From the NCBI GenBank assembly GCA_037481835.1, contig JBBFKW010000009.1:64001-128000 (forward strand): a stretch of DNA of 64,000 nucleotides. Direction: 5' to 3'. This stretch comes from Desulfosoma sp. Its GTDB lineage: Bacteria > Desulfobacterota > Syntrophobacteria > Syntrophobacterales > DSM-9756. Each line of letters begins with the position of its first letter. The first letter of the stretch is position 1. Under the pieces are notes generated by a model. That model searched no databases. It had not been told where the DNA came from and saw nothing but the letters and a program-made list of their open reading frames with translations. The position numbers were made by a program, and so were the translations under genes. Of the stretch, positions 12,260 to 40,981 are shown piece by piece.

Positions 12260-12288
12260 TTGACAAGTTTTCGGCTGGACTATAGAAA
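12260..12288 (+). promoter_or_regulatory. Putative sigma70 promoter for the LysR gene
   Basis: TTGACA at 12260, with TATAGA/TAGAAA 15-17 bp downstream. Confidence 0.4.
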
Positions 12289-12337
12289 CTGTGCATTCTG
12301 TGCATTGTCAAAACCGATGAAAAACGGAGCGGGAATC

Positions 12338-13285
12338 ATGGACATCCGCCGCCTGGAAGTTTTCTGCAAGGTTGTGGAAATGGGAAGCTTCACCAAAGCC
12401 GCCGAAGCGGTTTTGCTGTCGCAGCCGACCATCAGCGAGCACATCAAGACGCTGGAAGACATGGTCGGCGAGCGGCTCGTGGACCGGCTCGGCCGGGAAG
12501 CTTTGCCCACGCCCGCCGGAAAGATTCTTTACCGATACGCCAAAAAGATCATCCAGATCAAGGACGAAGCCGTCCAGGCCATGGCGGCCTATCGGGGCGA
12601 CCTGACGGGGGCGTTGCAATTGGGGGCGAGCACCATTCCAGGAACTTACATTTTGCCCCGCCTCATCGGCCTCTTCAAGCAGCGGCATCCTGAAGTGCAG
12701 ATCAGCATTCACATCGCCGGGACCAAGGAGATTGCCGAAGCCGTGGCCGACGGCCACCATGAACTGGGCCTTGTGGGGTCGCAGTGGAAGGATCGGCGTT
12801 TGAGCTTCGAGCGGATCTTTTCCGACGAACTGGTCCTGGCCGTGCCCAAAGACCACCCATGGACGCGGCAAAGCCCCATCGCCTTGGAGCAACTGGGCGA
12901 AGAGCCCTTCATCGCCCGGCACCGGGGATCGGGCACCCGCATGGTGACTTACGAAATCCTGGAAAACGCCGGTTTTGACCCGGCACGCCTCAGGGTCGTC
13001 GCCGAAATGGGCACCACGGAAGCCGTTCGGCAAAGCATCAAGGCAGGAATCGGCGTCTCCATCCTGTCGCGACAGGCGGTGGCCGAGGATGTGGCCTACG
13101 GCGCTCTGGCCGTGGTCCCCATCCAGGGGGTGGTCTTCCGGCGCCCCTTTTATCTGGTCAAACGCAAGGGACGAGAAGCCTCCCCGGTATGCGCGGCCTT
13201 TGAAGAACACTTGAGAACCCATAACCACGAGGCTGATTTTTCGCCCGAGCCTTTTTTGGCGATTGAGGCTTCCTATCATTCGTAA
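12338..13285 (+). CDS. LysR-family regulator (selenium-metabolism-associated type)
   Basis: MDIRRLEVF...SFTKAAE...SQPTISEHIKTLE HTH and GASTIPG. Heads the yedE-selD cluster. Confidence 0.9.
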   Translation: MDIRRLEVFCKVVEMGSFTKAAEAVLLSQPTISEHIKTLEDMVGERLVDRLGREALPTPAGKILYRYAKKIIQIKDEAVQAMAAYRGDLTGALQLGASTIPGTYILPRLIGLFKQRHPEVQISIHIAGTKEIAEAVADGHHELGLVGSQWKDRRLSFERIFSDELVLAVPKDHPWTRQSPIALEQLGEEPFIARHRGSGTRMVTYEILENAGFDPARLRVVAEMGTTEAVRQSIKAGIGVSILSRQAVAEDVAYGALAVVPIQGVVFRRPFYLVKRKGREASPVCAAFEEHLRTHNHEADFSPEPFLAIEASYHS

Positions 13286-13492
13286 GTCCTTTCATTTTTC
13301 TTTCCTATTTGTTTTTCCCCTGCGGTTTTCCTTAACTGTGCGCGGGGCCCGGCTCCGGCGGCCCTCGTGGAAAAACCTTCGAATCCCTGAGGGGGGTTTT
13401 CCCAAAAAGGTGGAGCGGTGGAGCGCAGGGACCCGGGCTTAAGGGTTTCTGAGCCCGGGAGCCGATTGACGAGGCAAGAGGAGGGAGCGTTG

Positions 13493-14584
13493 ATGCCTAT
13501 GAAGAATGTGTTTGCGTCGAGGTGGGGCATTGTTGTGGTGGGGGCGGTCATCGGCATTCTCGCCCCGGTGCTTCAAAAACTGGGCAATCCGGGCAACATG
13601 GGCATCTGTGTGGCCTGCATGGAACGGGACATGGCGGGCGCCCTGGGATTGCACCGCGCCGAAGTCGTCCAGTACATGCGGCCGGAAATCATCGGCTTTG
13701 TCCTGGGATCCCTCATCGCCGCTTACCTTTTCAAGGAATTTCGGCCACGCGTGGGATCCGCCCCCATCGTCCGGTTTATCCTCGGCGTCTTTGCCATGAT
13801 CGGCGCTCTGGTCTTCTTGGGCTGTCCGTGGCGGGCCATGTTGCGCCTTGCGGGAGGCGACGGAAACGCCATCCTGGGCCTTGCGGGTTTGGCTTTCGGC
13901 GTTTGGATCGGCACCCTTTTTCTCAAAAACGGCTACACCCTGGGAAGGACTCAGTCCACCTACGCCTCCGTGGGCTGGATCCTTCCCTTGATCATGCTGG
14001 GATTTTTGGCCCTGCTTTTCGTCTTTCCCCAAGTTCCGGGTGAACCCAAAAGTGGTGTCTTGTTTTACAGTGTCAAAGGCCCTGGGGCCATGCACGCGCC
14101 CGTGGCGCTCTCCCTCGCCGTGGGACTCCTCGTGGGCTTTCTCGCGCAAAGAAGCCGGTTTTGCACCATGGGAGCCCTTCGAGACCTCATCCTTTTCCGG
14201 CATACCCATCTTTTCAGCGGCTTTGTGAGCCTCATCGTCTTCGCCTTCATCACCAACCTTGTCCTGGGCCAATTCAAGGCGGGCTTTGAGGGGCAGCCCG
14301 TAGCCCACACGCAGCATCTGTGGAATTTTCTCGGCATGGCCCTGGCCGGTTTGGCCTTCGCCTTGGCGGGCGGTTGTCCCGGCCGGCAGCTCTTTCTCGC
14401 CGGCGAAGGGGACGGCGATGCGGCCGTGTTTGTTTTGGGCATGATCGTCGGCGCCGCATTTTCCCACAACTTCGGCCTCGCCAGTTCCCCCCAGGGCATC
14501 GGCCCCCATGGGATCGCAGGCTTGGTCGTCGGCTTTGCCGTGTGTCTTTTTATCGGCTTGACCATGCGAAAAAAGGCGGCATAA
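13493..14584 (+). CDS. yedE: YedE-family putative selenium/sulfur transporter
   Basis: GNPGNMGICVAC, QYMRPEI, FLGCPWR, QRSRFC, LAGGCPGRQ; multiple TM helices. Confidence 0.9.
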   Translation: MPMKNVFASRWGIVVVGAVIGILAPVLQKLGNPGNMGICVACMERDMAGALGLHRAEVVQYMRPEIIGFVLGSLIAAYLFKEFRPRVGSAPIVRFILGVFAMIGALVFLGCPWRAMLRLAGGDGNAILGLAGLAFGVWIGTLFLKNGYTLGRTQSTYASVGWILPLIMLGFLALLFVFPQVPGEPKSGVLFYSVKGPGAMHAPVALSLAVGLLVGFLAQRSRFCTMGALRDLILFRHTHLFSGFVSLIVFAFITNLVLGQFKAGFEGQPVAHTQHLWNFLGMALAGLAFALAGGCPGRQLFLAGEGDGDAAVFVLGMIVGAAFSHNFGLASSPQGIGPHGIAGLVVGFAVCLFIGLTMRKKAA

Positions 14585-14595
14585 GGAGGATCACG

Positions 14596-14814
14596 ATGGC
14601 TACGACTGTGGACGCCCGAGGATTTTCATGCCCTCAACCCGTACTCATGACTTTGGAGGCCATTAAGAAAGGATCGCCCCAGGATCTCGTCGTTTTGGTG
14701 GATACGGACACGTCCAAGGAAAACGTCATGCGCGCGGCCCAGAGCCAAGGCTACACCGTCCGAGACGTGGCGCCCGAAGGGGAAGGCTACCGCATACACA
14801 TTGTCAAGGGTTGA
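14596..14814 (+). CDS. TusA/SirA-family sulfur/selenium carrier
   Basis: MATTVDARGFSCPQPV; AAGGAGG RBS. Confidence 0.9.
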   Translation: MATTVDARGFSCPQPVLMTLEAIKKGSPQDLVVLVDTDTSKENVMRAAQSQGYTVRDVAPEGEGYRIHIVKG

Positions 14815-15374
14815 TGTCGTCCATGCTTCGGTTCTTGAAAAAACTTGCGCCCCGAAAGGACGCCGCTCCTTCGCCGGCTCCCGATCGGGGCATACTCGTC
14901 TTCGAAAACACGAGTGACGTCATCCAGGCCGAAAAGCGGCTCAAGGCCCACGGATTTCCCATCGCCGTCAAGGGGCCGCCGCCTGAAATCCAAAAGGGAT
15001 GCGATCTCGTCATCGAATTCCCCCTCATGGAAAAACTCTCCATCGAACGCCACCTGGAGGCTGCCGGGCTGCACCCGCTGGCCGTGGTGCCGGTGACGGC
15101 CCCGCTCCTTGAGCCCGTCAGCCTCTTTTACGCGAAGGACTTCGGATCGTATCTCATGGTCCGGGCCGCGAACATGAAGATCACGGTGAACAAGGAATCT
15201 TTGCGCATCGTGAACATTTCGGGAGGGGGCTGTCCCGACGTGCCCTATCTCGCCGACCGCCTAGTCGGAAAAACCCTCAACGAGGCCCCGCAACCCAAAG
15301 AGATCGGCCATACGCTGTGCGGGTACGCTCTGCAACTGGCCTACGAGGAGCTGTGCCGTCGATGCTTGCCGTAA
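14814..15374 (+). CDS. DUF3343-like putative Se/S carrier with C-terminal Cys-containing extension
   Basis: FENTSDVIQAEK...PPPEIQKGC, followed by SGGGCPDVP...GHTLC. TGATG overlap with the upstream gene. Confidence 0.7.
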   Translation: MSSMLRFLKKLAPRKDAAPSPAPDRGILVFENTSDVIQAEKRLKAHGFPIAVKGPPPEIQKGCDLVIEFPLMEKLSIERHLEAAGLHPLAVVPVTAPLLEPVSLFYAKDFGSYLMVRAANMKITVNKESLRIVNISGGGCPDVPYLADRLVGKTLNEAPQPKEIGHTLCGYALQLAYEELCRRCLP

Positions 15375-16243
15375 TCGGAACGGTCCCCGACCCCTCTCTG
15401 CCTCTGACCACCGGGACGGCTCAGCTCAAGGATGGCAGGCTTCACACGGCCGGCGTGAGCATTCCCATCACTCGAGGCACACCCGCTCTGGCGGCCGCGG
15501 CCGTCGCGGTTGCGGAAAGGCTTTCCCGCACCGAGGTGTTCGTCTTTCTCGTGGGAGACGTGGGTCGAGGGGGCGGCAGCCGGGTCTTGTACCAATTCCT
15601 TGCCGAGAATCTTCCCGGGTTTTCCTTCGACGTCATGGTTTTTCACTATCTGCAGCCGGACGTGGACTGGCACAACAAGGTGCTGTTCGCCGTGGAGGCC
15701 TTGCCACGACGGCCTTTGCTCATCGCCGATGCGGGCTTCATGTACGCCGCAAAGATGAGCGGCCAGGCTTCAGCCTACGACATCTTCACGCCCGATATCG
15801 GGGAAATGGCCTTTCTCGCCGATGAACGCGCCCCGCACCCTTTCTACACCCGGGGCTTCGTCCTGCACGACACCCGAAACGTGCCGGAGCTGGTGGCAAG
15901 AGCTTATGCCCATGAGGATGCGCCCCGCTGGCTCGTGGTCAAGGGAGAAACGGACCATATCGCCGAGGCGGGGCGGGTCGTGGCCACGGTTCGGGAACCC
16001 GTCTGGGAGGCCATGGAAGCCATCGGCGGTACCGGAGACACCTTGACGGGAATCCTCGGGGCTCTGTGCGCCTCGGGAAAAGATCCCCTTGACGCATGCC
16101 GAACAGCCGCCTTAACAAACCGATGGGTCGGCCGCCTTGCCCGTCCCACGCCGGCCACGCAGGTGGCGGAACTCATCCCCGCCATCCCCGATGCGCTGGA
16201 ACAGGTGCAGAATCCCGTCCTTGCGGAGGAAGCGGGTGGATAA
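15362..16243 (+). CDS. Ribokinase-fold / NAD(P)HX-dehydratase-like (YjeF-C) protein of unknown function
   Basis: LIADAG, FTPDIGE, LVVKG, GGTGDTLTG anion-hole motif. Confidence 0.75.
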   Translation: MLAVIGTVPDPSLPLTTGTAQLKDGRLHTAGVSIPITRGTPALAAAAVAVAERLSRTEVFVFLVGDVGRGGGSRVLYQFLAENLPGFSFDVMVFHYLQPDVDWHNKVLFAVEALPRRPLLIADAGFMYAAKMSGQASAYDIFTPDIGEMAFLADERAPHPFYTRGFVLHDTRNVPELVARAYAHEDAPRWLVVKGETDHIAEAGRVVATVREPVWEAMEAIGGTGDTLTGILGALCASGKDPLDACRTAALTNRWVGRLARPTPATQVAELIPAIPDALEQVQNPVLAEEAGG

Positions 16244-17288
16244 GAGCGACAAAATCCGACTGACGGAAACCGTCACAGGGGCCGGGTGAGCGTCCAAGCT
16301 GGCTCCGGGGGACCTGGACCGAGCCCTGTGCGGCATGCGTTTTCCCACGGACGAAAACGTCCTGGTGGGACTGGATCGAGCCGATGACGCGGGCGTCTAC
16401 AAGGTCAGCGACGATCTCGCGCTCATCCAAACGGTGGATTTCTTCACCCCCATCGTGGACGATCCCTACTGGTTCGGCCAGATCGCCGCAGCCAACGCCC
16501 TGAGCGACGTGTACGCCATGGGGGGCGTTCCCAAGACGGCCATGAACCTGGTGGCCTTCCCGGCCAAGGATTTGGGCTTGGACATTCTGCGGGCCCTGAT
16601 CCAAGGCGGCATCGACAAGCTCGCCGAAGCCCACGTCGCCCTCATCGGGGGGCACAGCATCGAAGACAAGGAATTGAAATACGGCCTTTCCGTCACGGGC
16701 TTCATCCATCCCAACCGCATCCTCACCAAGAAAACCCTCCAGGGCGGCGATCGCCTCATTCTCACCAAGCCCCTGGGAACCGGCATCATCAACACCGCCA
16801 TCAAGGCCCGCATGGCCTCGGAAGACCTCACCGAACGCGTCACCCGCCTCATGGCTACGCTGAACCGAACGGCCGCCCAAGTCATGGCCGACTTTCACGT
16901 CCATGCGTGCACAGACGTGACGGGCTTCGGCCTGCTGGGACATTTGGCCGAAATGGTGGACGGCTCGGGAAAGAGTGTGCGCCTGGCGGCCCATTGCGTT
17001 CCGGTTTTCCCGGAAGCCGTGGAACTCGCCTCCATGGGATTGATTCCCGCCGGAGCCTACAAGAACCGCGACTTCCGAAAGGACATGGTCGCTTTCGACC
17101 CCGATGTTCCCCTGGCCCTCCAAGACATCTTGTTTGACCCCCAAACCTCCGGGGGCCTCCTCATCAGCGTGGCGCCTTCCCACGCCGAAGCGCTCCTCGA
17201 CGCCCTGCGCAGCAAGGGTGTGGAAGCAAGCGCCATCATCGGTGAGGTCCTTGACGATCCCGCCCAACGCATCACCGTGGCGGCCTAA
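16236..17288 (+). CDS. selD: Selenide, water dikinase (selenophosphate synthetase), selenocysteine form (UGA 16287-16289)
   Basis: GTG 16236 after GGAGGA gives MDKSDKIRLTETVTGAG-U-ASKLAPGDL, in frame with the ORF carrying DDAGVY, QTVDFFTP, AANALSD, GGHS, DVTGFGLLGH and DPQTSGGLL. Confidence 0.92.
16301..16325 (+). promoter_or_regulatory. Putative SECIS element of selD
   Basis: GGCTC...GAGCC outer stem with an inner CCGGG-GGA-CCTGG pairing, starting 11 nt after the UGA. Confidence 0.5.
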
Positions 17289-21243: not shown

Positions 21244-22680
21244 ATGCCCACGAAAACCTCGAAAAACCACCTCATCTTCAACGTCTTGGAAGCGCTTCGC
21301 GAAGGGTTTACCCATTTTTCGGGGCCGAGTCGGGTGGCGCTGGTCTATGCGGAAAAGCGCGACGATCCCATGAGGATCTGCGATCCGGAAGATCTCCTCC
21401 GCGGCCATGAACCGAAGTTGAAGGAACTCTATCTGGACAGCGAGGCGTGGCGCGCCGACGCGCCGGATGTGCGCGACATGAAGCGCTTCGGGCAGATTTA
21501 CCCTCTGCCGAACCTTAACCTCTCGGGGCTCATCTCCTACGGCGGCCGATCCCGATCCATTTTCTACCAGATGTGGTTTACGGAACATCACCCCGACATG
21601 TGCTCCGTCCTGCCCACAGAACGGTGGCTCGAGCACGCGGCCTATCTTCTGTCCCACGATTTCGCCACGGCCAAGACATTCTACACGGACTCGTCCCGAT
21701 ACGTCCTTCGCGAATACGCGACCCACGCCGTCCACGACGCCATTTTGGACGGGTTGAACCTCAAAGTCGGCTGGGACAGCCGGCTGCGCATTTACCCCAT
21801 CTTGGACGCCGTTCTGGAAATTTCCAAAACCCCGGAAGAAGGCGCCTGGCCCCGGGGGAAACTCGTCTTTGTGGAAGAAACGTGCCTCAAGGATGTTCCT
21901 TTCATGGCCGTGTTTCCCCAGGGGGAACGTCCAAGTATCAGCAATGCGAAACACATCCGAAAGATCCTGCTGGCGGTGGAACATTCGGAACGCTGGCTCG
22001 TCTCTGAAGGCCGTACCCTTGTGGGAATCGGCAGGGGGCCTTTGCCGGACTGCCGGATCAGCGCCGAATTTTTCGGCAGTTACGGCTTTCTTCGCTTCAA
22101 CGGCCAGCCCATGTGCAGCTTTTCGGAAGGCCGCTTCTACTCCTCGAACCGGCGCGCCAAATTGGTTCAGCTGGAAGAAACCCTCCTCACGTCGGACCTG
22201 GACCCTTCCATGGCCCATACGCTTTTTCAGATTACGGCGGCCCTCGTGCACGGCGCCCAGGAACGCAAGCACGGCTGCACCTTGGTCCTGGATCTGGGGA
22301 CCAACCCCCTTTCCATTTCGGGGCATTTGTTGGAAAACCCGCTGGACCTCCAGGACCCCGCCAATCTGGATCTGGCCAAATCCTTGTCCAAAATGGACGG
22401 GGCTCTGCACATCGGGGCGGACGCCAAACTCCATCGGTTCGCCTGTCTTCTGGACGGGCGCAGTGTGCCGGGCGAAGACCGATCCCGAGGAGCCCGTTAC
22501 AATTCAGCCCTTCGGTTCAGTGCGGAACACGATCAGGCCATCATCGTGGTCGTCTCTTCCGACCGCCCTGTCTCGGTCGTCCACGGGGGAGTAGAACTTT
22601 CGGCCCTGTGCCCTTGGAGCCCATCCTTCACGCTGAGCGGGCTGCCGCCCACCTTGTCCGATTGGATTTCCCTTGGCTAA
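21244..22680 (+). CDS. Protein with C-terminal DisA_N/diadenylate-cyclase-like domain
   Basis: KHGCTLV, SKMDGAL, RGARYNSA, VVSSD. RHR is replaced by RYN. Confidence 0.75.
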   Translation: MPTKTSKNHLIFNVLEALREGFTHFSGPSRVALVYAEKRDDPMRICDPEDLLRGHEPKLKELYLDSEAWRADAPDVRDMKRFGQIYPLPNLNLSGLISYGGRSRSIFYQMWFTEHHPDMCSVLPTERWLEHAAYLLSHDFATAKTFYTDSSRYVLREYATHAVHDAILDGLNLKVGWDSRLRIYPILDAVLEISKTPEEGAWPRGKLVFVEETCLKDVPFMAVFPQGERPSISNAKHIRKILLAVEHSERWLVSEGRTLVGIGRGPLPDCRISAEFFGSYGFLRFNGQPMCSFSEGRFYSSNRRAKLVQLEETLLTSDLDPSMAHTLFQITAALVHGAQERKHGCTLVLDLGTNPLSISGHLLENPLDLQDPANLDLAKSLSKMDGALHIGADAKLHRFACLLDGRSVPGEDRSRGARYNSALRFSAEHDQAIIVVVSSDRPVSVVHGGVELSALCPWSPSFTLSGLPPTLSDWISLG

Positions 22681-25345: not shown

Positions 25346-25510
25346 GGAAAGTCCTCCTTTCTTGCCAATGGCGAAAGAATGTGTTCAAGATGCGCGGCCA
25401 TTGCGCCGAATTCTCTTGTGGGCTCATACCCCGGTGCACCGAGGTGCGGAAGAACCGCGCAGCCATAGGGTGACGCACAGCTCACGCGCTGAAATGGAGC
25501 CATAGAAGTC

Positions 25511-25987
25511 ATGGACACGCTGAAAGTCTTCGCCACCGAGGATGGGAAAGGAATGATCGTCTGCCCTCAGTGCGGGTTTGCCCGTCAGGTGGATGTCGCC
25601 CGCTTCCTGCCTCAAAACAAACAGGTCAAGGTTCGGTGCCCATGCGGCCATTCTTTCCGGGTCTCCTTGGAAATCCGAAGGACATACCGAAAGTCGGTCT
25701 TCCTCTTTGGAGAATACCGAAAAAAGGCGGACGATGCCAGCAGCCCCTATCGGCAGATGATCGTCCAAGACATTTCGCTGGGTGGCTGCCGTTTTCAAAC
25801 CCCCTTGGCCCACGGCCTAAAGATCGGGGATTTGGTCCATCTTGAATTCCCCTTGACCGATGAACGAAAGTCCCTTGTGAAAGCCGTCGGCGAGGTTCGC
25901 CGCGTGGAAGGAAAAAGCGTCGGCGTCACTTTCGTCAATTTCGACTCCGGCTCCGAAAAAGCCCTCTATTTTTTCCTCTTGCCCTAA
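25511..25987 (+). CDS. PilZ-domain protein with N-terminal Zn ribbon
   Basis: CPQC...CPC, then RRTYR (RxxxR) and DISLGG (DxSxxG). Confidence 0.88.
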   Translation: MDTLKVFATEDGKGMIVCPQCGFARQVDVARFLPQNKQVKVRCPCGHSFRVSLEIRRTYRKSVFLFGEYRKKADDASSPYRQMIVQDISLGGCRFQTPLAHGLKIGDLVHLEFPLTDERKSLVKAVGEVRRVEGKSVGVTFVNFDSGSEKALYFFLLP

Positions 25988-26240
25988 ACGACCATGAGTT
26001 TCCGGAGTCGCCCGAACCGGTCGGCGGCTTTCGGGCGGGCTCCCCATTTCTCAATGGGCGTCTTGACCGCCTTTCCCTCTTTGCGATAAGGTTTGTAAAA
26101 ATTCTCACGCATCAGTGCCGGCAGGGCGAATCGGACGGCTTTACGGCCACCGGAGGGACCGTCATGAAGGCGGGCGAGACGGCACGCGATGGCAGCACAA
26201 AAGCTCTTGCCACAGGGCATGGGCCGGTGATTCCCCTTTC

Positions 26241-26256
26241 TGTCGGGAGAGCGGCA
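26241..26256. promoter_or_regulatory. Possible CooA/CRP-FNR-type site upstream of cooS
   Basis: TGTCG-N6-CGGCA, one mismatch from the TGTCG-N6-CGACA palindrome, about 125 bp upstream of cooS. Confidence 0.3.
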
Positions 26257-26380
26257 CCCCAAACCCCGGCGCCGCTCGCTCCGGAGCCGTCTTGTCTCAG
26301 CTTACCTGTTTTTGTCCGTTTTTCGCGTCCGTTCCCAGGGCTGAGAGATCCGAAGATCTTTCATGAGGAGGGCAGAAGCC

Positions 26381-28264
26381 ATGATGCTCACAAAGGATGA
26401 GATACAGGCGCGCACCATCACCGAAGACGGCCGGGTTTTTCTCGAAAAGGCCGCCCGAGACGGCCTTGAAACGGTTTGGGACCGCTACGAAGCCCAAAAG
26501 CCGCAATGCGGCTTTTGCGAACTGGGGCTGAGTTGCCGCAATTGCTCCATGGGGCCGTGCCGGATCGACCCCTTCGGGGACGGGCCGCAGCGCGGCGTGT
26601 GCGGCGCCGATGGGGACATCATCGTAGCCCGGAATTTGGGGCGCATGATCGCCGCCGGATCGGCGTCCCATTCCGATCACGGCCGGGACCTGGTGGAAGT
26701 GCTCCGAAAAGTCGGTGAAGGCCGCGCTCCGGGATACACCATCCGCAGCCCGGAAAAGCTCAAGAAGGTGGCCGCGGAATTTGGGATCCCCTCCGACGGC
26801 AAGACGCCCGAAGCCCTGGCGGTGGAGCTGGCCCATGCCATGGAGGAGGAATTCGGCACCCGCAAGAAAGCCCTGACGTTTCTCGGCAGGCTCCCCGAAA
26901 AGCGGCGGGCCCTCTGGGAAAAACTGGGGATCACCCCCCGGGGCATCGATCGGGAAACGTCGGAAATGATGCACCGCACCCACATGGGTGTGGACAACGA
27001 CTGGCAAAGCCTGCTCTTGCACGGCTTGCGCAATGCCCTTTCCGACGGGTGGGGAGGATCCCTCATCGCCACGGAGGTTTCCGATATTCTGTTCGGCATC
27101 CCGCAGCCGGTTTCGTCCGAAGTCAACCTGGGCGTGTTGAAACCGGACCAGGTGAACATCATCCTTCACGGCCACAACCCCATCGTCTCTGAGATGATTT
27201 TCGAGGCGGCCCAGGATGGGGAACTCACGGCGCTGGCGTCTCAAAAGGGGGCGGCCGGCATCAACCTGGCCGGCCTGTGCTGCACGGGCAACGAACTCCT
27301 CATGCGCCGAGGCATTCCCATGGCGGGCAACCACCTCATGACGGAACTGGCCTTGAGCACCGGGCTTGTGGACATGATGCTCGTGGATTACCAGTGCATC
27401 ATGCCGGCCCTGGGAGAAATCGCCAGGTGTTACCACACGCTCATGGTCTCCACGAGCGACAAGGCCAAGTACCCGCACATGGTTCACCACGAGTTCCATC
27501 CGGAAACGGCCCGGGAAAAGGCTCGGGACCTGGTGCGGCAAGCGGTGGAAAATTTCACTCGGCGCATCCCCGCCAAGATCCTCACCCCGCCCAACACCCC
27601 GACGAAAATGATGGCCGGATTCAGTGTGGAAGCCATCCTGGCGGCTCTCGGCGGAAGCCCGACCCCGCTGATCGAGGCCATCAAATCCGGAGCGGTCCAG
27701 GGCGCCGTCGGGGTCGTGGGGTGCAACAACCCCAAAATCCGACACGACTTCGGCCATGTGACCCTGACCCGACGGCTGATCGAAAACGATATCCTCGTCG
27801 TGGACACGGGCTGCGCCGCCGTCGCCCATGCCAAAGCCGGCCTCAAGGTCCCCGAAGCCGCGGCTCAGGCGGGACCGGGCTTGCGGCAGGTGTGTGCGGC
27901 CCTGGGCATCCCGCCGGTCCTGCACATGGGCAGCTGTGTGGATAACGTGCGCATCCTGGACTTGGCCGCCGCCCTTGCCAACACCTTGGGGACGGACATT
28001 TCGGACCTTCCCTTGGCCGCCGCCGCCCCCGAATGGTACTCGGAAAAGGCCGTCTCGATCGCCTGTTACGCCGTGGCCTCCGGCGTGTTCACGGTGCTCG
28101 GCACCCCACCGCCCATTTTCGGCAGCCCCAAGATCGTCAAGCTCCTCACGGAAGATATCCGGGGCCTTCTGGGCGCCTCCTTCGCCGTGGAACCCGATCC
28201 GGAAAAAGCGGCGGGCCTCATCGTGGACCACATCCGCCAGAAGAGGAAAGCTCTCGGGCTTTGA
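26381..28264 (+). CDS. cooS: Anaerobic [NiFe] carbon-monoxide dehydrogenase catalytic subunit
   Basis: QCGFCELGLSCRNCSMGPC, HSDH, HGHNP, CCTGNE, DYQC, GCNN, TGC, GSCVDN, SEKA; all C-cluster ligands present. Confidence 0.97.
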   Translation: MMLTKDEIQARTITEDGRVFLEKAARDGLETVWDRYEAQKPQCGFCELGLSCRNCSMGPCRIDPFGDGPQRGVCGADGDIIVARNLGRMIAAGSASHSDHGRDLVEVLRKVGEGRAPGYTIRSPEKLKKVAAEFGIPSDGKTPEALAVELAHAMEEEFGTRKKALTFLGRLPEKRRALWEKLGITPRGIDRETSEMMHRTHMGVDNDWQSLLLHGLRNALSDGWGGSLIATEVSDILFGIPQPVSSEVNLGVLKPDQVNIILHGHNPIVSEMIFEAAQDGELTALASQKGAAGINLAGLCCTGNELLMRRGIPMAGNHLMTELALSTGLVDMMLVDYQCIMPALGEIARCYHTLMVSTSDKAKYPHMVHHEFHPETAREKARDLVRQAVENFTRRIPAKILTPPNTPTKMMAGFSVEAILAALGGSPTPLIEAIKSGAVQGAVGVVGCNNPKIRHDFGHVTLTRRLIENDILVVDTGCAAVAHAKAGLKVPEAAAQAGPGLRQVCAALGIPPVLHMGSCVDNVRILDLAAALANTLGTDISDLPLAAAAPEWYSEKAVSIACYAVASGVFTVLGTPPPIFGSPKIVKLLTEDIRGLLGASFAVEPDPEKAAGLIVDHIRQKRKALGL

Positions 28265-28288
28265 AGAATTCCGCTGAGGGAGTCCGCT

Positions 28289-28834
28289 ATGGAACAAAGC
28301 GTGAAAGAAAGGGTGATGGTGCGACTGGAGCGGTGCGTCGGGTGCCGTTCGTGCGAAATGGCATGTCGGGTGGCTCATTCCCGAGGCGGCACCCTTTTGG
28401 CCGCCGTGTGTGAGGAACCCAGACCCTCACGGCGGATCTTCGTGGAACAGGCGGCGGACAGCCCGGTCCCTTTTCTCTGCCGCCATTGTGAAGATGCGCC
28501 GTGCGTGCGCTGCTGCCCCACGGGGGCCTTGGCCTTCGACGAAGACAGCCGCCTGGTAATCTACACGGGGCAGCGGTGTATCGGCTGCCATGCGTGCATC
28601 ATGGCCTGTCCATTCGGAGTCATCCAAACCGGTGGAGGCGACGGGTACGTGGTCAAGTGCGATCGATGTCCGGGACGGGATCTGCCGGCGTGCGTGGAAG
28701 CCTGCCCCACCCAGGCTTTGGTGTTGGAAGGCCGCTTCGTTTCCGATCGGCGCCGCCGCACTGCGGCCCGGTTCGTGGAGGCCGCCCGCGGGGCCCCGCA
28801 CGTGGAAGACATGCTCGCGTCAGGGAGCCCTTAG
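28289..28834 (+). CDS. cooF: 4x[4Fe-4S] electron-transfer protein (CooF)
   Basis: CVGCRSCEMAC, CRHCEDAPCVRCCP, CIGCHACIMACP, KCDRC...CVEACP; directly after cooS. Confidence 0.9.
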   Translation: MEQSVKERVMVRLERCVGCRSCEMACRVAHSRGGTLLAAVCEEPRPSRRIFVEQAADSPVPFLCRHCEDAPCVRCCPTGALAFDEDSRLVIYTGQRCIGCHACIMACPFGVIQTGGGDGYVVKCDRCPGRDLPACVEACPTQALVLEGRFVSDRRRRTAARFVEAARGAPHVEDMLASGSP

Positions 28835-28839
28835 ACCCC

Positions 28840-30906
28840 ATGAACGCCGCGCCCCCCGTTCGCACCGTGTGCCCGTACTGCGCCGTCGGCTGCCACCTGG
28901 ACCTTCTCGTGGAAAACGGCCGGGTCGCCGGGTTGGAACACGCCGTGGATTCCCCCGTGAACGGCGGCCGTCTTTGCGCCAAAGGCCATGCAGCCTTGGA
29001 AATTGTCAACCACCCCGATCGGCTGCAGAACCCCCTGCAGCGGTCGGCTTCCGGATGGGTGCCCGTTTCGTGGGACCGCGCCTTGGATACGGCGGCGGAA
29101 CGAATCCGGAACATCCTGGCCGCCCATGGCCCTGAGGCTCTCGCTTTTTTGTCCACGGCCAAAGGGTCCAACGAGGAAAACTATCTGGTCCAAAAGCTCG
29201 CCCGAGCTCTCGGGTCCAACAATGTGGACCACTGCGCCCGACTGTGCCATGCCAGCACACTTACCGGCCTCGGGCCCATGCTCGGCATGGGGGCGGCGAC
29301 CAATGCGCTGTCGGATCTTCGCCAATCCGAGTGCCTCTTCTTTGTGGGATCTAACCTGGCCGAAAACCACCCCGTGGCCTTCCGATGGGTGCAGGAGGCC
29401 AAGGACAGAGGAGCGCGGATTCTCGTGGCCGATCCTCGGCGCACCCCCACCGCCTGGATCGCGGACCTTCACCTGCCGCTCAAACCCGGAACAGACCTCG
29501 CCCTTCTCGCCGGCATGCTCCATGTGATTTTTCAGGAAGGGCTTCAAGACGACGCCTTCATCGCCCGTAGGACTCGAGGCGTGGAGGCCCTGCGCGCTTC
29601 CGTTCAGCACACCGACCCGCTGTGGGCGGCGCGCATCACGGGCGTGCCCGCCCGCGACATCGTCCGGGCCGCACGCCTGTATGCCAAAGCCCGCCGAGCG
29701 TCGCTTATCTATTGCATGGGCGTGACCCAACATGTGCACGGCACCGAAACCGTCCGCGCCTGCGCCGATCTCGCTTTGGTCACGGGTCACATAGGCCGGG
29801 CGGGATCGGGCCTGTTTCCGGTGCGCGGTCAGGACAACGTCCAGGGGGCGTGCGACATGGGCGCTTTGAGCGGCCTGCTGCCCGGCTATCGGCCGGTAAC
29901 AGATCCGGACGCTCGCACTTTCTTCGAAAAAGCCTGGGGATTGCCCTCCGGAACCTTGGCCGCCGCCCCCGGCCTTACGGTGACCGAAATGGAACAGGCC
30001 GCGGGGCACAGGGTTCGCGGCCTCATCGCCATCGGGGAAAACCCCGTGGTGACCAGCCCGGATAGCCGAAGGACCAGGGAAAACCTGAAGCGCTTGGATT
30101 TCCTCCTGGTCGTGGACCTCTTTTTGACGGAAACGGCCGAACTGGCCCACTTGGTGCTCCCAGCCGCCGCCTGGGCGGAAAAAAGCGGTTCCCGGACCAA
30201 CACGGATCGACGCGTCCAATGGTCGCCGAAAGCCGTCGATCCTCCTGGGGAAGCCCGACCCGACTGGAAGATCATCACGGACCTGGCCCACCGACTGGGA
30301 TGGGACTCCTTTTTCCCGTACGGTTCTCCGGAAGACATTCTCGAAGAAATCCGCCGGGTGGTGCCCGCTTACGGGGGCATGAGCCCCCGGCGGCTTGCGA
30401 CGGCCGCCGAAGGCATTCCCTGGCCGTGTCCGGATGAGACCCATCCCGGCACGCCGGTTCTCCACGAACATCGTTTCGCCACGGAAGACGGCTTGGCCCG
30501 TCTTTACCCCATAGAGTTCCTGGAGGCGCCCGAGCTTCCCGACGCCGATTTTCCCTATTGCCTGACCACCGGCCGTGTGACCCTCCATTACAACAGCGGC
30601 GCCATGACCCGGCGCAGCCCCAGCCTGGCGTCCCGCTCCCCGTACCTTTTCGTGGAAATCCATCCGGAAGACGCCGCACGGGAAGGGCTCCACCATGGAG
30701 ACCGGGTGCGCGTCGTGACCCGCCGAGGCGCCCTGGAAGCGCAGGCGCACATCACCGGCAGCGTCAGCCGTGGTGTCGTCTTCGCGCCTTTTCACTTTCC
30801 CGAAACCAATGCCCTCACCCAGAACGTGCTCGATCCGTCCGCCAAAATCCCCGAATTTAAAACCGCGGCCTGCCGACTGGAAAAAGTGAAAGGGGCCGGA
30901 CCATGA
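28840..30906 (+). CDS. fdhF: Cytoplasmic Mo/W formate dehydrogenase alpha subunit (FdhF type, Cys form)
   Basis: CPYCAVGC...C cluster, NNVDHCARLCH active site, GVTQH, RGQDNVQG, C-terminal molybdopterin-binding domain (TTGR...PEFK); no Tat signal. Confidence 0.9.
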   Translation: MNAAPPVRTVCPYCAVGCHLDLLVENGRVAGLEHAVDSPVNGGRLCAKGHAALEIVNHPDRLQNPLQRSASGWVPVSWDRALDTAAERIRNILAAHGPEALAFLSTAKGSNEENYLVQKLARALGSNNVDHCARLCHASTLTGLGPMLGMGAATNALSDLRQSECLFFVGSNLAENHPVAFRWVQEAKDRGARILVADPRRTPTAWIADLHLPLKPGTDLALLAGMLHVIFQEGLQDDAFIARRTRGVEALRASVQHTDPLWAARITGVPARDIVRAARLYAKARRASLIYCMGVTQHVHGTETVRACADLALVTGHIGRAGSGLFPVRGQDNVQGACDMGALSGLLPGYRPVTDPDARTFFEKAWGLPSGTLAAAPGLTVTEMEQAAGHRVRGLIAIGENPVVTSPDSRRTRENLKRLDFLLVVDLFLTETAELAHLVLPAAAWAEKSGSRTNTDRRVQWSPKAVDPPGEARPDWKIITDLAHRLGWDSFFPYGSPEDILEEIRRVVPAYGGMSPRRLATAAEGIPWPCPDETHPGTPVLHEHRFATEDGLARLYPIEFLEAPELPDADFPYCLTTGRVTLHYNSGAMTRRSPSLASRSPYLFVEIHPEDAAREGLHHGDRVRVVTRRGALEAQAHITGSVSRGVVFAPFHFPETNALTQNVLDPSAKIPEFKTAACRLEKVKGAGP

Positions 30907-31442
30907 ACGCTTTTCTTCACGTGGACTTTCGGCGCTGCACGGGATGTTTCGCCTGCGAGGCGGCTTGCCGAACGGCCCATGGCGGCGCCTGCCGCGTTCA
31001 CCTGGCCTTCGCCGACGGGCTTCCCGTCCCTCTCATGTGCCGCCAGTGTGAAAACAGTCCCTGCGCCGCCGTGTGCCCGGAAGAGGCCCTGGTTTGGGAT
31101 AAAACCCATGGAGTGGTTCTCCTCGTCGAACGATGCACCCGATGCGGCCTGTGCGCCGTCGCCTGCCCTTTCGGGGTATTGAGCGTCGATCCTTTTGGTC
31201 GGCCGAACGTCGTCAAGTGCGACCTGTGCCTGGGTCGCCGCGCCGAAGGAAAACGCCCGGCCTGCGTGCTCACTTGCCCGACGGAGGCCATCACCGACGA
31301 ACCGGACCGTCCTCTGAAGCGCCGTCGCCTCGCCGGGTCGGTTCCGCCTATCGCCGCGCGTCCGTTTTCCGAGAGCCTCCCCGCTCCGATGGGAAAGGAA
31401 GGCGGGGTTCAGGGAGGCTTCAGGGGGAAAAATCCGCGATGA
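30903..31442 (+). CDS. 4x[4Fe-4S] protein (FdhB/HycB-like)
   Basis: Four ferredoxin-type Cys clusters; ATGA overlap with fdhF. Confidence 0.9.
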   Translation: MNAFLHVDFRRCTGCFACEAACRTAHGGACRVHLAFADGLPVPLMCRQCENSPCAAVCPEEALVWDKTHGVVLLVERCTRCGLCAVACPFGVLSVDPFGRPNVVKCDLCLGRRAEGKRPACVLTCPTEAITDEPDRPLKRRRLAGSVPPIAARPFSESLPAPMGKEGGVQGGFRGKNPR

Positions 31443-31897
31443 AAGAGACTCCAGCCGATCGACGGCTCATCATCGATTTGGAAAAATGCTTCGGGTGTTT
31501 TGCGTGCGCCGCTGCATGCCCGGAAAAGCACATCGCTTTTACGGACCATGAAGGGCTGCGGCGTTTTAGGGCTCCGAGCTTGTGTGGCGCGCAATGCGAC
31601 GCATGCCGAAAGGCCTGTCCCGTGGACGCCATCGTTTTGGAAGAGGTGGCTTCCGAAGAGCCACGACCAGCTCTGATCGAGCTCACATGGGGTCTTCCTT
31701 TGACGCGGTGCCGCACGTGCGGTGAGGCGTTCACCACGGAAAAGATCCGCCAAAGCCTCTCGGACAAACTGGCCGCGCTCCTGGGATCCGCGGACCTTGC
31801 CCTCGACCGGATCCCCCTGTGCCCTTCGTGCCGTCGCGACGATGAAGCCCAACGGATGCGATCCGCCACGCGAACCTTGCCCGATCCCCTGCCCTGA
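31439..31897 (+). CDS. [4Fe-4S] dicluster protein with extra CxxC...CxxC site
   Basis: MKETPADRR...CFGCFACAAACP...CGAQCDACRKACP...CRTC...CPSC; ATGA overlap with the previous gene. Confidence 0.85.
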   Translation: MKETPADRRLIIDLEKCFGCFACAAACPEKHIAFTDHEGLRRFRAPSLCGAQCDACRKACPVDAIVLEEVASEEPRPALIELTWGLPLTRCRTCGEAFTTEKIRQSLSDKLAALLGSADLALDRIPLCPSCRRDDEAQRMRSATRTLPDPLP

Positions 31898-32194
31898 AGT
31901 TTTGAGTTTCGTTTTTTGCTGCCTCCGACACACGATCTCGGACACGCTCCCAGGAGCCTGTCCGAGAAGGGCTTTTCCCCTGAAAGGGGCAGGAAGGGCG
32001 CATCGGTTTTCGCGGCACCGTGCGCGAGAGCGGCCCCATGGACTACGGGCGTCGCGCCCGCCTCTTATGCCGACAGTTGGACACACTTCATGCCGCGCAT
32101 GGCATCACTTCTTCCTCAATGCGCCTATGGCAAAACCACCTCCCATGGCGTTGCGGGGCTCAGAGGTGCGTGCAGGAAGAATGCGGCGCTTGGC

Positions 32195-32219
32195 GGGCGG
32201 GGATAAACCCCGCCCCTAC
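32195..32219 (-). repeat. GTAG-type REP-like palindrome
   Basis: Minus strand reads GTAG-GGGCGGGG-TTTAT-CCCCGCCC. Confidence 0.6.
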
Positions 32220-32347
32220 CCAAGAACCGTTCTTGTACCCCTTCCCAAGACCTCAATATGTTCTCGTACGGACAGGCTTTATGCGCTTCCCAAGATCTCA
32301 ATCCTTTCTCATTGGCGGTCGGGTTTTGTGCCCGCCCCAGAATGGGC

Positions 32348-32376
32348 TTGACACGGCCGCTTTCATTTTCTACTTA
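32348..32376 (+). promoter_or_regulatory. Putative sigma70 promoter of the IclR-kce-liv operon
   Basis: TTGACA-N17-TACTTA. Confidence 0.5.
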
Positions 32377-32430
32377 GCAGAACCAGTGCTTGCATCGCGA
32401 AATTTTGTGGACTCTGAGGGAGTAAAACCA

Positions 32431-33261
32431 ATGGCGCCGAAGCTGTCGATCGTCGAGGATCCATCCAGGACCTTCATCCAGTCCCTATCCCGGGGCATGG
32501 CGGTCTTGGAAGCCCTGTCCCAGGCCGAACGGCCCCTCAACCTCACGGAAATCGCCGACGCCGTGGGGCTCAACAAGGTGACCGTCTCCCGGTTTTGTTA
32601 CACCTGGGTGCGCCTGGGCTACGTGCACCGAACGCCGGACAAGCACTACCAGTTGGCCCCCAAGATGCTCAGCCTCGGCTATGCGGCCTTGAGCCGCATG
32701 GACATCCGGCAGGTGGGAGAGCCTTACCTCCAGGAGTTGTCCCGGCGACTGGGCGAAACGGTCAACATGGCCGTCCTGGACGGTCTGGACATTCTCTACG
32801 TGGACCGTTACGTCACGGAGCCGATCATGAAGCACCCCCTGCACATCGGGGCGCGGCTTCCGGTCTATTGCACGTCCATGGGCAAGGCCATGGCAGCCTT
32901 TCTTCCGACCAAGGAGCGGGAGGACCTTATCAAACGCCTCCATTTTTATGCCCTGACCCATCGCACGATCCTGTCCGCGGAAGCCTTCCGCACCGAGCTG
33001 GAGTTGGTGCGAAGCCGCGGCTATGCCGTTAACGATGAAGAACTTTCCGTGGGGCTGCGTTCCATCGCCGTCCCCGTTTTGAGGCGGGGATATCCTGTGG
33101 CGGCCGTCAACGTGGCCGTGCCGACGATCCGCTACACGGTGGACCAGCTCGTGGAACGATGCCTGCCGGCCCTCAAGGAAACGGCCCAGACCATTGCGGA
33201 GCTTTTGAGCAAGCAGCTTGTCGTTAAAAGGGTTTCCCGACGTTCCGAGGTCGCCCGATGA
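32431..33261 (+). CDS. IclR/PcaR-family transcriptional regulator
   Basis: FIQSLSRGMAVL HTH, GETVN, GARLPVYCTSMGKA, GYAVNDEE. Confidence 0.92.
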   Translation: MAPKLSIVEDPSRTFIQSLSRGMAVLEALSQAERPLNLTEIADAVGLNKVTVSRFCYTWVRLGYVHRTPDKHYQLAPKMLSLGYAALSRMDIRQVGEPYLQELSRRLGETVNMAVLDGLDILYVDRYVTEPIMKHPLHIGARLPVYCTSMGKAMAAFLPTKEREDLIKRLHFYALTHRTILSAEAFRTELELVRSRGYAVNDEELSVGLRSIAVPVLRRGYPVAAVNVAVPTIRYTVDQLVERCLPALKETAQTIAELLSKQLVVKRVSRRSEVAR

Positions 33262-39151: not shown

Positions 39152-40981
39152 ATGGGATGGATGGGAAAGATCCTTCGGGTCGACCTGACGGCGGGAACGA
39201 CCGCCGTGGAACCTTTGGACCGGCAAAAGGCGGTGGATTACGTGGGCGGACGGGGCCTCGGGATCCGGATGCTGCTTGATGAAGTCCCGCCCACAGTGGA
39301 TCCCTTTTCTCCGGAAAACAAGCTCATTTTCCTCACGGGCCCCCTTACGGGAACCGGAACCCCCACCGGCGCCCGTTACATGGTCATGACCAAGTCGCCG
39401 CTCACGGGAGCGCTGACCTGTTCCAACGCCGGGGGGCAGTTTCCCACCATGCTCAAGAAGGCGGGATTCGACGGGATCATTTTCGAAGGCCGTTCCCCCG
39501 AACCCGTGTATCTCTGGGTCTGCGAAGGGGTGGCGGAACTTCGCAAGGCTGGGCATCTGTGGGGAAAAGACACCCATGAAACGGATGGGATCCTGCGCCG
39601 AGAAACCCGAGACGATGCCAAGACGGCCGTGATCGGCCCTGCGGGGGAACGCCGTGTGCTCTTCGCCGGCATCATGAACGACAAGGATCGTGCAGCGGGC
39701 CGATCGGGAGTGGGCGCCGTCATGGGATCAAAGAATCTCAAAGGGGTCGTCGTGTTCGGCACCCAGAAGGTTCCCATTCACGACCCCGAAGCGTTCAAGA
39801 AGCTCCTGAAGGACATCATGGCCGGCTTCAAGGAAGCCACCAAGAAAGGGCCTTTGCCCCTTCGGGTCTACGGGACGGCCATCACCTCCACAGGAACGCA
39901 AAACGTGGGCGCCTATCCCACGCGGAATTTTCAGCAGGGCACCTTTGAGCACTGGAAGGATATCGGCGGAGAGGTCCTCACCGAAAAATACCTGGTGCGG
40001 ACCAAATCCTGTTACAGCTGCCCCATTTCCTGCGGCCGGGTGACCCGCGTGGCCGAAGGGCCTTTCCAAGGGGAGGGCGAAGGGCCGGAATACGAGACGG
40101 TGTACGCCCTGGGCAGCAACTGCGGCGTGCGGGACTTGGCCGCCGTCATCAAGGCCAACTACATTTGCAACGAAATGGGCATGGATACCATTTCCGCAGG
40201 GGCGACCATCGCCTGTGCCATGGAAATGTACGAACGGGGCATCCTGGACCAAAAGACCATCGGACGGCCGCTGCCTTTCGGGGACGCTCACGGCCTGGTG
40301 GAAATGGTCCGCAAGACGGCGCTTCGCGAAGGCTTCGGCAACGAACTGGCCGAGGGGAGCCTGCGGCTGGCCACTCGTTACGGGTGTCCCGAACTGGCCA
40401 TGGTGTCCAAAGGACAGGAATTCGCCGGCTACGAACCCCGGGCGGAAAAGGGCATGGGATTGGCCTATGCCACGTCGCCCATCGGGGCGAGCCACATGCG
40501 CGGAGATCCCGCCTATATCGAAATTCTCGGGGTGCCCGTCCTCATAGATCCGCTCACCTGGGAAGACAAGCCCCAGATCGTCAAAGACTGGCAGGACGTC
40601 TTCGCGTTGATCGATTCGGCCGGCCTGTGCGTGTTTTTCTCCGTAAGAAACCTGGTGAGCAAGACCAAAGACATCCGCCCGGTGCGGATTTTGGAGCTCC
40701 TGAACGCGGTGACGGGAGCCGGCTACACCATGGAGAGCCTGCTGACCGCCGCAGAACGGATCATCAACGCGGAACGGCTCTTTTTGGTCAAAGCGGGCTT
40801 CGACGCCAAGGACGACACGCTGCCTCCGCGCATCACGCGAGAACCCATGCCCGTCGGACCCGCCAAGGGGCAGGTGTGCGAACTGGAAAAGATGCTGCCC
40901 GTCTATTACAAGCTGAGGGGATGGGACCCAGCGGGTCGCCCCACCCCCGAACTCTTGGAACGATTGGGCCTTTCAAGCTGA
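39152..40981 (+). CDS. aor: Tungsten-dependent aldehyde:ferredoxin oxidoreductase
   Basis: GKILRVDL, KSPLTG, AAGRSGVGAVMGSKNLK, CYSCPISC, EGPEYET, GMDTIS, DSAGLC. Confidence 0.93.
   Translation: MGWMGKILRVDLTAGTTAVEPLDRQKAVDYVGGRGLGIRMLLDEVPPTVDPFSPENKLIFLTGPLTGTGTPTGARYMVMTKSPLTGALTCSNAGGQFPTMLKKAGFDGIIFEGRSPEPVYLWVCEGVAELRKAGHLWGKDTHETDGILRRETRDDAKTAVIGPAGERRVLFAGIMNDKDRAAGRSGVGAVMGSKNLKGVVVFGTQKVPIHDPEAFKKLLKDIMAGFKEATKKGPLPLRVYGTAITSTGTQNVGAYPTRNFQQGTFEHWKDIGGEVLTEKYLVRTKSCYSCPISCGRVTRVAEGPFQGEGEGPEYETVYALGSNCGVRDLAAVIKANYICNEMGMDTISAGATIACAMEMYERGILDQKTIGRPLPFGDAHGLVEMVRKTALREGFGNELAEGSLRLATRYGCPELAMVSKGQEFAGYEPRAEKGMGLAYATSPIGASHMRGDPAYIEILGVPVLIDPLTWEDKPQIVKDWQDVFALIDSAGLCVFFSVRNLVSKTKDIRPVRILELLNAVTGAGYTMESLLTAAERIINAERLFLVKAGFDAKDDTLPPRITREPMPVGPAKGQVCELEKMLPVYYKLRGWDPAGRPTPELLERLGLSS

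Follow-up and report, generated by a model that had tools for sequence, protein, structure and literature searches.

In formate hydrogenlyase 1 (FHL-1) of Escherichia coli (7z0s/7z0t), an FdhF-type catalytic subunit is combined with a HycB-like four-cluster protein and a HycF-like two-cluster protein, the HycG/HycE [NiFe] hydrogenase and the HycC/HycD membrane arm. Hydrogen-dependent CO2 reductase (HDCR) of Thermoanaerobacter kivui and Acetobacterium woodii (7qv7) is soluble and contains FdhF, two HycB-type subunits and the [FeFe] hydrogenase HydA2, with no flavin or membrane module. On the side of carbon monoxide dehydrogenase (CODH), a CO-oxidising CooS and a four-cluster CooF occur in the CooS-CooF-energy-converting hydrogenase (ECH) systems of Rhodospirillum rubrum and Carboxydothermus hydrogenoformans (CODH-I) and in free cooF-cooS pairs of Desulfobacterota. 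CODH has been joined to formate dehydrogenase (FDH) via 4x[4Fe-4S] proteins in the CO:formate oxidoreductase (CFOR) of Thermococcus onnurineus, which the accessible part of that report describes as an engineered fusion of two naturally non-interacting Fe-S subunits; according to the same text, no enzyme with a direct coupling of CO oxidation to formate production exists naturally, and electrons have not been found to pass directly between CODH and FDH in nature (Lim et al. 2022, PMC9166738). The available portion of a 2026 review likewise treats CODH and FDH as enzymes without native interaction, and both sources agree with an earlier sequence-only reading of the DNA analysed here, which knew such coupling mainly from engineered systems. 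Here we describe a five-gene operon, cooS-cooF-fdhA-FeS1-FeS2, from Desulfosoma sp. (GenBank assembly GCA_037481835.1). The operon occupies positions 26381..31897 of a stretch of 64,000 nucleotides (contig JBBFKW010000009.1, positions 64,001 to 128,000; hereafter the window). Its sequences and structural models make it a plausible natural CO:formate oxidoreductase.

The five-gene module is real and conserved, and it is probably undescribed. No published description of a natural cooS-fdhF operon was found in the literature, although the supplementary files of the eLife 2026 context survey may list such operons. In the accessible text of that survey, FDH is lumped under 'one carbon pool' genes and the operon is not singled out. 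The relevant literature found on CODH-FDH and CFOR consisted of three engineering papers, and no paper on CODH and FDH of Desulfacinum was found. A survey of CODH neighbourhoods recognises, in its available part, classes named for the Wood-Ljungdahl pathway (WLP), CooF, FNOR, ECH, ABC transporter and metallochaperone (PMC8776680), and the cooS-fdhA context fits none of the classes given there.

All five genes are encoded on the + strand. The first, cooS (26381..28264; TIGR01702, Pfam Prismane), encodes a Ni-CODH catalytic subunit and is followed after a gap of 24 bp by cooF (28289..28834; Fer4_11, HydN/HycB-like), encoding a 4x[4Fe-4S] electron-transfer subunit. A gap of 5 bp separates cooF from fdhA/fdhF (28840..30906; TIGR01591), whose 688-aa product is a cytoplasmic Cys-type FDH of the Mo/W-bis(pyranopterin guanine dinucleotide) type. 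The last two genes, FeS1 (30903..31442; Fer4_11, HydN/HycB-like) and FeS2 (31439..31897), each begin in an ATGA overlap with the preceding gene; they encode a HycB-like 4x[4Fe-4S] subunit and a soluble HycF-like protein, respectively, the latter carrying 2x[4Fe-4S] followed by a CxxC-x33-CxxC metal site in its C-terminal part. Re-derivation from the open reading frames (ORFs) thus returned the same co-directional genes, gaps and overlaps as the sequence-only reading. The identities that it had proposed, namely Ni-CODH, CooF, a Cys-type FdhF carrying HCARLCH and RGQDNVQG, and two polyferredoxins, were borne out by the profile matches, with the polyferredoxins now resolved into a HycB-like and a HycF-like protein. 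Its further observation that the operon lacks a hydrogenase, acetyl-CoA synthase (ACS), NAD-binding flavoprotein or membrane redox subunit held for the operon and for its flanks (14.8-42.3 kb). The longest cooS ORF begins at an alternative upstream ATG, 26363, which is less likely to be used; the ATG at 26381 was preferred because a GAGGAGG Shine-Dalgarno sequence (26365-26371) sits 9 nt upstream of it.

Against the equivalog model TIGR01702, whose cut-off is 478, CooS reached 690.8 bits, and its best solved relative was the CODH 6b6v_A (815.9 bits over residues 12-633), to which it aligned along its full length, the N-terminal Cys motif CGFCELGLSCRNCSMGPCRI included. The full-length equivalog match and the Cys motifs assign CooS to the anaerobic Ni-CODH catalytic subunits. 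FdhA scored 775.6 bits on the equivalog TIGR01591 (cut-off 666.25), with the F420-dependent FDH 9t1s_L, the HDCR subunit FdhF (7qv7_S), 7bkb_D and E. coli FdhH (1aa6_A) as best solved relatives. When FdhA was aligned to solved FDHs, its DHCARLCH fell on the selenocysteine (Sec)/Cys-His position and its PVRGQDNVQG on the conserved Arg motif; this match and these catalytic motifs likewise assign FdhA to the alpha subunits of metal-dependent FDHs. Neither protein has a twin-arginine leader, in line with the sequence-only reading, and the N-terminus of FdhA reads MNAAPPVRTVCPYC.

CooF is the proposed adaptor that would join CooS to the FDH arm. Sixteen Cys residues, enough for four [4Fe-4S] clusters, were invariant across 17 orthologues (alignment A1). 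Its nearest solved relatives by sequence were 9mqx_E and HycB4 of HDCR (7qv7_B, E 3.2e-24). A phylum sample of 401 genomes contained 21 more distant relatives (44-53% identity), of which 18 were adjacent to cooS and the other three lay on short loci; therefore, we assign the window CooF to the CooF family as a genuine member.

The two iron-sulfur proteins on the FDH side were also well conserved. FeS1 has 16 Cys residues that were invariant across 16 orthologues (A3), again enough for four [4Fe-4S] clusters, and its solved relatives were 8c0z_C, 9mqx_E, HDCR HycB3 (7qv7_A, E 3.8e-19) and FHL HycB (7z0s_B). In FeS2, 12 Cys residues were invariant across 18 orthologues (A2), forming two ferredoxin-type motifs (C17/20/23/27 and C49/53/56/60) and the quartet C91xxC94...C128xxC131. 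Profile searches with FeS2 returned a two-cluster ferredoxin domain and a weak match to the iron-sulfur subunit of FHL (HycF). The AlphaFold2 model of FeS2 (pLDDT 85.3) found E. coli HycF (7z0s_F) as its best fold match (Foldseek E 1.9e-8, TMq 0.69, 143 columns), and the match spanned nearly the whole length of FeS2, which is without the N-terminal extension of HycF (the matches begin near HycF residue 37-38). In HycF, according to the consulted part of the structural report, the C-terminal Cys quartet C117, C120, C155 and C158 holds a single metal ion beside the FdhF interface (PMC9474812). The C-terminal quartet of FeS2 has the same spacing, and sequence and fold model together identify FeS2 as a HycF homologue, Cys4 site included. 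A candidate FeS1-FeS2 fusion in one other genome (G004, locus L115) was rejected, since an in-frame stop separates the two genes.

Compared with the described systems, the FDH half of the cassette corresponds to the FdhF-HycB-HycF arm of FHL taken off the membrane, with CooF-CooS predicted to stand in the place of the [NiFe] hydrogenase. It shares with FHL-1 the FdhF-type catalytic subunit, the HycB-like and HycF-like proteins and the C-terminal CxxC...CxxC single-metal site. It differs from FHL-1 in that no HycG/HycE hydrogenase and no HycC/HycD membrane arm were found within 14.8-42.3 kb, where CooF-CooS is encoded instead, and in that FdhA has Cys at the position of Sec in the aligned solved FDHs. 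With HDCR the cassette has in common solubility, an FdhF with two HycB-type subunits and the lack of a flavin or membrane module; by sequence CooF matches HycB4 and FeS1 matches HycB3, and a CooF-FeS1 contact is predicted by modelling. In contrast to HDCR, it adds a HycF-like subunit, and an [FeFe] hydrogenase such as HydA2 is absent from the operon and, by a search for PF02906, without a match in the whole genome (99.4% complete). The sequence-only reading had taken HDCR alone as its template. The wiring of FdhF via HycB-type subunits stood, whereas the closer counterpart proved to be the FHL arm with its Cys4 site. The cassette is thus judged to work like HDCR and FHL and to belong to neither, because a search of the operon for the hydrogenase that defines them found none, and the genome likewise gave no match for the [FeFe] type. 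Its proposed chemistry is that of CFOR, with the difference that the cassette consists of separate natural genes and a third, HycF-like subunit, and it departs from the CooS-CooF-ECH systems in encoding an FDH arm as acceptor beside CooS-CooF. What appears to be new is the partner enzyme with which this modular FDH complex is combined.

Conserved cooS-cooF-fdhA synteny, which the sequence-only reading had proposed as a check, was looked for in the 80 nearest cooS loci of species representatives, in 96 genomes of the order and in the 401-genome phylum sample. A metagenome search with FdhA returned 80 loci, of which 43 had at least 2600 bp upstream and could be judged. Genes in these foreign loci were called by tblastn and simple ORF rules. 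FdhA orthologues with at least 67% identity were found, among the 96 genomes of the order, only in the window's genus and in the Desulfacinum genus; the nearest named relatives by CooS identity were Desulfacinum infernum (86%) and D. hydrothermale (84%). The order PilZ-cooS-cooF-fdhA-FeS1-FeS2 was present in 4/4 genomes of the window's genus (own genome included) and in 3/3 of the Desulfacinum genus, and the cassette was found in seven of the nine genomes of the window's family. One of the two remaining family genomes is cut by a contig start inside fdhA, and the best locus of the other has a 48%-identical FdhA with no other cassette genes nearby.

In the metagenomes, cooS-cooF lay directly upstream of fdhA in 10 of the 43 judgeable loci, and one further locus (L137) carried a partial cooS at the contig end. 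Linkage followed FdhA identity: cooS was linked in 4/4 loci at 75% or more, in 5/14 at 50-75% and in 1/25 at 40-50%. The lowest FdhA identity among the linked loci was 48%, and some fell at 48-55%. Wherever a cooF-like gene stood directly before fdhA in a judgeable metagenome locus, cooS was there as well (10/10). The CooS proteins of the distant cassettes were 47-64% identical to that of the window, and the flanking genes differed per lineage; one cassette lies beside a restriction-modification pair and a major facilitator superfamily (MFS) transporter gene, and another beside a lipoate ligase gene and a geranylgeranyl-reductase-like gene. The recurrence of the same order in other genomes and on metagenome contigs places the five-gene arrangement beyond chance. 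Because the family genomes and the distant metagenome loci share this order between unrelated flanks, the cassette is best described, at the level of gene order, as rare yet recurring as a self-contained unit across deep divergence.

Some details of single distant loci are recorded here. The neighbours of the cassette on the metagenome contig L201, a TYW2/Trm5 methyltransferase, a GvpD/KaiC-like ATPase and an F420-type oxidoreductase, look archaeal, and these neighbours alone give a hint that the cassette may cross domains. MFS transporter genes occur near two distant cassettes (L139:11061-12272 and L201:3365-3988), and it is conceivable that they encode formate or oxalate carriers. In L143, which is among the ten linked metagenome loci, cooS (5048-6396) is 5'-truncated or rearranged compared with that of its near-twin L139 (4540-6396), which may reflect either decay of this copy or a difference in assembly.

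Trees were computed with FastTree or by short IQ-TREE searches, and the unlinked cooS genes sampled in them were the nearest relatives of the window cooS. In the FdhA FastTree (95 rows), all 20 cooS-linked rows, in which two genomes are present twice, fell into one clade of 29 rows (SH-like support 89), together with seven unlinked rows and two of unknown context. The sister of this clade is a clade of 18 rows without cooS. Linked FdhA was Cys-type in 20/20 rows, and unlinked rows of known context comprised 28 Sec-type, 10 Cys-type and 3 that were not matched. Our reading of these relationships is that fdhA-FeS1-FeS2 may be the old core, with CooF-CooS as the added partner.

The sequence-only reading had suggested structure prediction as a check. 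The contact between the two halves was modelled from orthologue alignments of FeS1, FeS2 and CooF, and CooF was the partner that was scored. CooF gave an ipSAE of 0.69 (0.73, 0.67 and 0.69 in the individual runs), compared with 0.38 for the best of three controls. In calibration, the ipSAE mark was reached by 116/157 solved complexes and by 2/215 mismatched pairs. At least 60% of the contacts agreed between runs, and the pLDDT of the partner was at least 79. The contacts with the least predicted error joined FeS1 47-53 (second Cys motif) to CooF 95-111 (third Cys motif), and the C-terminal helix of FeS2 also touched CooF in the model. The prediction supports binding of CooF to the HycB-like and HycF-like proteins.

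We propose that the five gene products form one soluble complex, whose Fe-S wire would let CO oxidation by CooS drive CO2 reduction to formate by FdhA, and we put the probability of this reading at about 0.5. The Ni-CODH dimer formed by CooS would pass electrons to the four clusters of CooF, and CooF would dock on the pair of the HycF-like protein (two clusters and the Cys4 metal) and the HycB-like protein (four clusters). This pair would then feed the [4Fe-4S] cluster and the Mo/W centre of the Cys-type FdhA, so that no diffusible carrier would be required between CODH and FDH. Possible fates of the formate are the methyl branch of the Wood-Ljungdahl pathway and oxidation by other FDHs. The potential of the CO2/CO couple (about -520 mV) is about 90 mV more negative than that of CO2/formate (about -430 mV), which favours the net reaction CO + H2O -> formate + H+; under standard conditions it releases about 17 kJ/mol. 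The data establish what the genes are, which residues bind the clusters, that the synteny is conserved and that a CooF contact is predicted; that the subunits form a complex, how they are ordered along the wire, which way electrons flow and what the cell gains from it are what we infer here. In favour of the proposed complex we also count the close spacing of the genes, the single clade and uniform Cys type of the linked FdhA, the loss of the upstream cooF in the window and D. infernum, and the fact that the operon and its flanks encode no NAD-binding flavoprotein, membrane anchor or hydrogenase as an alternative partner. The wider proposal, that a natural carrier-free CO:formate oxidoreductase exists as an apparently mobile cassette in thermophilic sulfate reducers and in distant uncultured lineages, is put forward tentatively and at somewhat less than even odds. 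As for the idea of the sequence-only reading that CODH replaces the hydrogenase in an HDCR-type wire, the conserved cassette, the true CooF, the predicted CooF contact and the lack of an [FeFe] hydrogenase speak for it; it is thereby supported in part, and the FHL arm is a better model for the FDH half than HDCR alone.

Several observations weigh against this reading. Within the 401-genome phylum sample, the cooS-cooF-fdhA order was found only in the window's own family, and of the nearest cooS loci, 65 had 1500 bp or more of downstream sequence, in which fdhA followed in two (D. infernum and D. hydrothermale). All five genomes of a sister family (f3) carry cooF-fdhA-FeS1-FeS2 without adjacent cooS; their cooF is 50-58% identical to the window's, and each of them has two or three cooS genes elsewhere. 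In two genomes of family f2 and in many metagenome loci, fdhA(Sec)-FeS1...FeS2 occurs alone. On the CooS tree, the linked cooS genes stand in two places (two changes), where a forced single group was not rejected (approximately unbiased test, p 0.086); independent recruitment of cooS, which had been considered, was dropped on the same test. The genome has two further true FDHs and a second CooS. No cooC was found in the operon or its flanks, the whole genome not having been searched for this gene. A FocA-type formate channel (PF01226), the one transporter type searched for, had no match in the genome, which weakens the role in formate cycling or export that the sequence-only reading had offered. 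The structural model covers FeS1, FeS2 and CooF, and it was run with author-made alignments and three chains, unlike the calibration. The binding pass may partly reflect memory, because the comparable HycB3-HycB4 complex of HDCR (7qv7) and HycB-HycF complex of FHL (7z0s) are solved.

The f3 genomes and the wider sister clade indicate that the FDH arm at least persists without a neighbouring CODH gene, and there it must have another electron partner, probably ferredoxin. The same could apply to the operon of the window: CooS and FdhA might share one Fe-S scaffold, both working oxidatively, with the electrons leaving to ferredoxin or an unlinked acceptor, as would suit a Wood-Ljungdahl pathway run in reverse to oxidise acetate. 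The genome encodes ACS and the organism is related to Desulfacinum. Bacteria of the Desulfacinum type oxidise acetate completely. An aldehyde:ferredoxin oxidoreductase is encoded 7 kb downstream of the operon, so a ferredoxin pool appears to be in use, and HDCR-type enzymes accept ferredoxin too, as stated in the accessible part of Lim et al. (2022, PMC9166738). However, none of the cassettes examined contains a ferredoxin, a flavoprotein or any other exit module, and the tight linkage of cooS-cooF with one FdhA clade would be needless if each enzyme merely reduced a common soluble pool. We therefore regard such a double dehydrogenase as rather unlikely, though it accounts for the unlinked FDH arms.

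It is improbable that CooS-CooF and FdhA-FeS1-FeS2 are separate ferredoxin-linked enzymes that are co-regulated because both serve C1 metabolism. This would agree with the free-standing cooF-cooS pairs of most relatives: among the 80 nearest cooS loci, cooF was upstream of cooS in 70 and downstream in three, and fdhA followed in the two named above. It would also agree with the presence of both an upstream and a downstream cooF in D. hydrothermale, and with the fact that the contact between the halves comes from a model. On the other hand, the f3 family has kept cooF with the FDH genes though cooS is not adjacent, a sign that CooF may be an integral part of the FDH assembly; the five-gene order has been held across lineages of about 50% identity with unrelated flanks; and the model of CooF with FeS1 and FeS2 passes its controls.

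A flow in the reverse direction, in which formate oxidation would drive the formation of CO from CO2 while CO is very low, supplying ACS or acting as a redox valve, is very improbable, since it would be uphill by the same 17 kJ/mol, the CO used by ACS normally comes from its own CODH subunit, and no data here favour formate-driven CO formation. The ACS encoded in the genome would be compatible with it, as would the general reversibility of both enzyme types noted in the available parts of two reports (eLife 2026; the FHL paper).

The arrangement of cooF around cooS varied among the relatives. The window and D. infernum have the downstream cooF only, the upstream copy being gone. A Syntrophobacteraceae metagenome-assembled genome shows cooF-cooS-cooF, with a downstream cooF of 64% identity, and then the contig ends. 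In D. hydrothermale (L002:7324-7887) and in L009 (393-929), a canonical cooF stands upstream of cooS besides the downstream one. Two f3 loci contained further redox genes. In genome G092 (L121:4111-7130), cooF-fdhA-FeS1-FeS2 is followed by a Trm112-methyltransferase fusion and a second molybdopterin oxidoreductase, which is 29% identical and without a match to the N-terminal Fe4S4 domain. An aldehyde:ferredoxin oxidoreductase gene is also found near the cooF-fdhA module of genome G095 (L119:872-2644).

Direct conversion of CO to formate is a target of C1 biotechnology, and if the proposed CO:formate oxidoreductase is real, a natural thermophilic CODH-FDH with dedicated wire subunits would offer a ready-made design. 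The genomic contexts recognised for Ni-CODH would then also gain an FDH class, and sulfate-reducing and related anaerobes might have a new route of CO use or detoxification, a third natural way of CO disposal or assimilation beside H2-evolving CODH-ECH and CODH/ACS. The electron arm of FHL would appear as a portable module able to join a different catalytic partner. The operon is also present in the cultured strains Desulfacinum infernum DSM 9756 and D. hydrothermale DSM 13146, and the idea is directly testable.

The host genome (3.63 Mb in 38 contigs, with the window on contig C9) encodes other C1 enzymes on contigs other than that of the operon. The second CooS is on contig C14 (729 bits on TIGR01702, 36% identical to the operon CooS), and the ACS alpha/beta and gamma subunits are on C15. 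Contig C5 encodes a periplasmic Sec-FDH of the FdnG type together with the beta subunit, and a NuoG-fused Sec-FdhA is encoded beside Mrp/NuoLMN-like genes on C16. The operon FDH is thus one of three true FDHs; with two further FDHs and a second CooS at hand, the Wood-Ljungdahl pathway does not require it by default, and from this gene inventory it is not obviously the housekeeping enzyme of that pathway. Contigs other than the operon's also carry a [NiFe(Se)] hydrogenase of the periplasmic type, along with additional [NiFe] matches that are partial. The Sec-type FdhA on C16 (about 12070-14830; L244:8071-10833) has a NuoG-like N-terminal Fe-S domain and follows four Mrp/NuoL/M/N-like antiporter genes, and these genes may form a membrane-bound FDH-antiporter module.

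Upstream of the operon lies a PilZ gene, separated by a spacer of 375 bp from the ATG at 26363 (393 bp from that at 26381). A scan of 25400-32600 returned no sigma-70-like promoter and six terminator-like hairpins, all weak and fewer than the shuffle mean of 8.3. An Rfam scan of 25400-32300 found no molybdenum cofactor riboswitch, its sole match being a chance-level snoRNA (E 0.76). Just 5' of the cooS Shine-Dalgarno sequence, a palindrome, AGATC-CGAA-GATCT (26346-26359), is kept in the closest relatives; compensated versions take its place in G007/L129 (AGATT..AATCT) and in G006 (GATGG..CCATC). It has no Rfam match and could be a hairpin in the 5' untranslated region or a binding site for a regulator.

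Downstream of the operon are genes for IclR, a BKACE enzyme and a branched-chain ABC transporter, and past this block lies the aldehyde:ferredoxin oxidoreductase gene mentioned above (AFOR_N + AFOR_C; 39152-40981, + strand). Farther upstream in the window, 14811-17288 (+) encodes Se/S-carrier-like, NAD(P)H-hydrate-dehydratase-like and AIR-synthase-family (SelD-like) proteins, followed by ZnuA/ABC/Fur genes; these may form a selenium-handling cluster, and the genome holds several Sec-FDHs. At 21244-22680 (+), DACND and DACNH sensor domains precede a DisA-type diadenylate cyclase domain.

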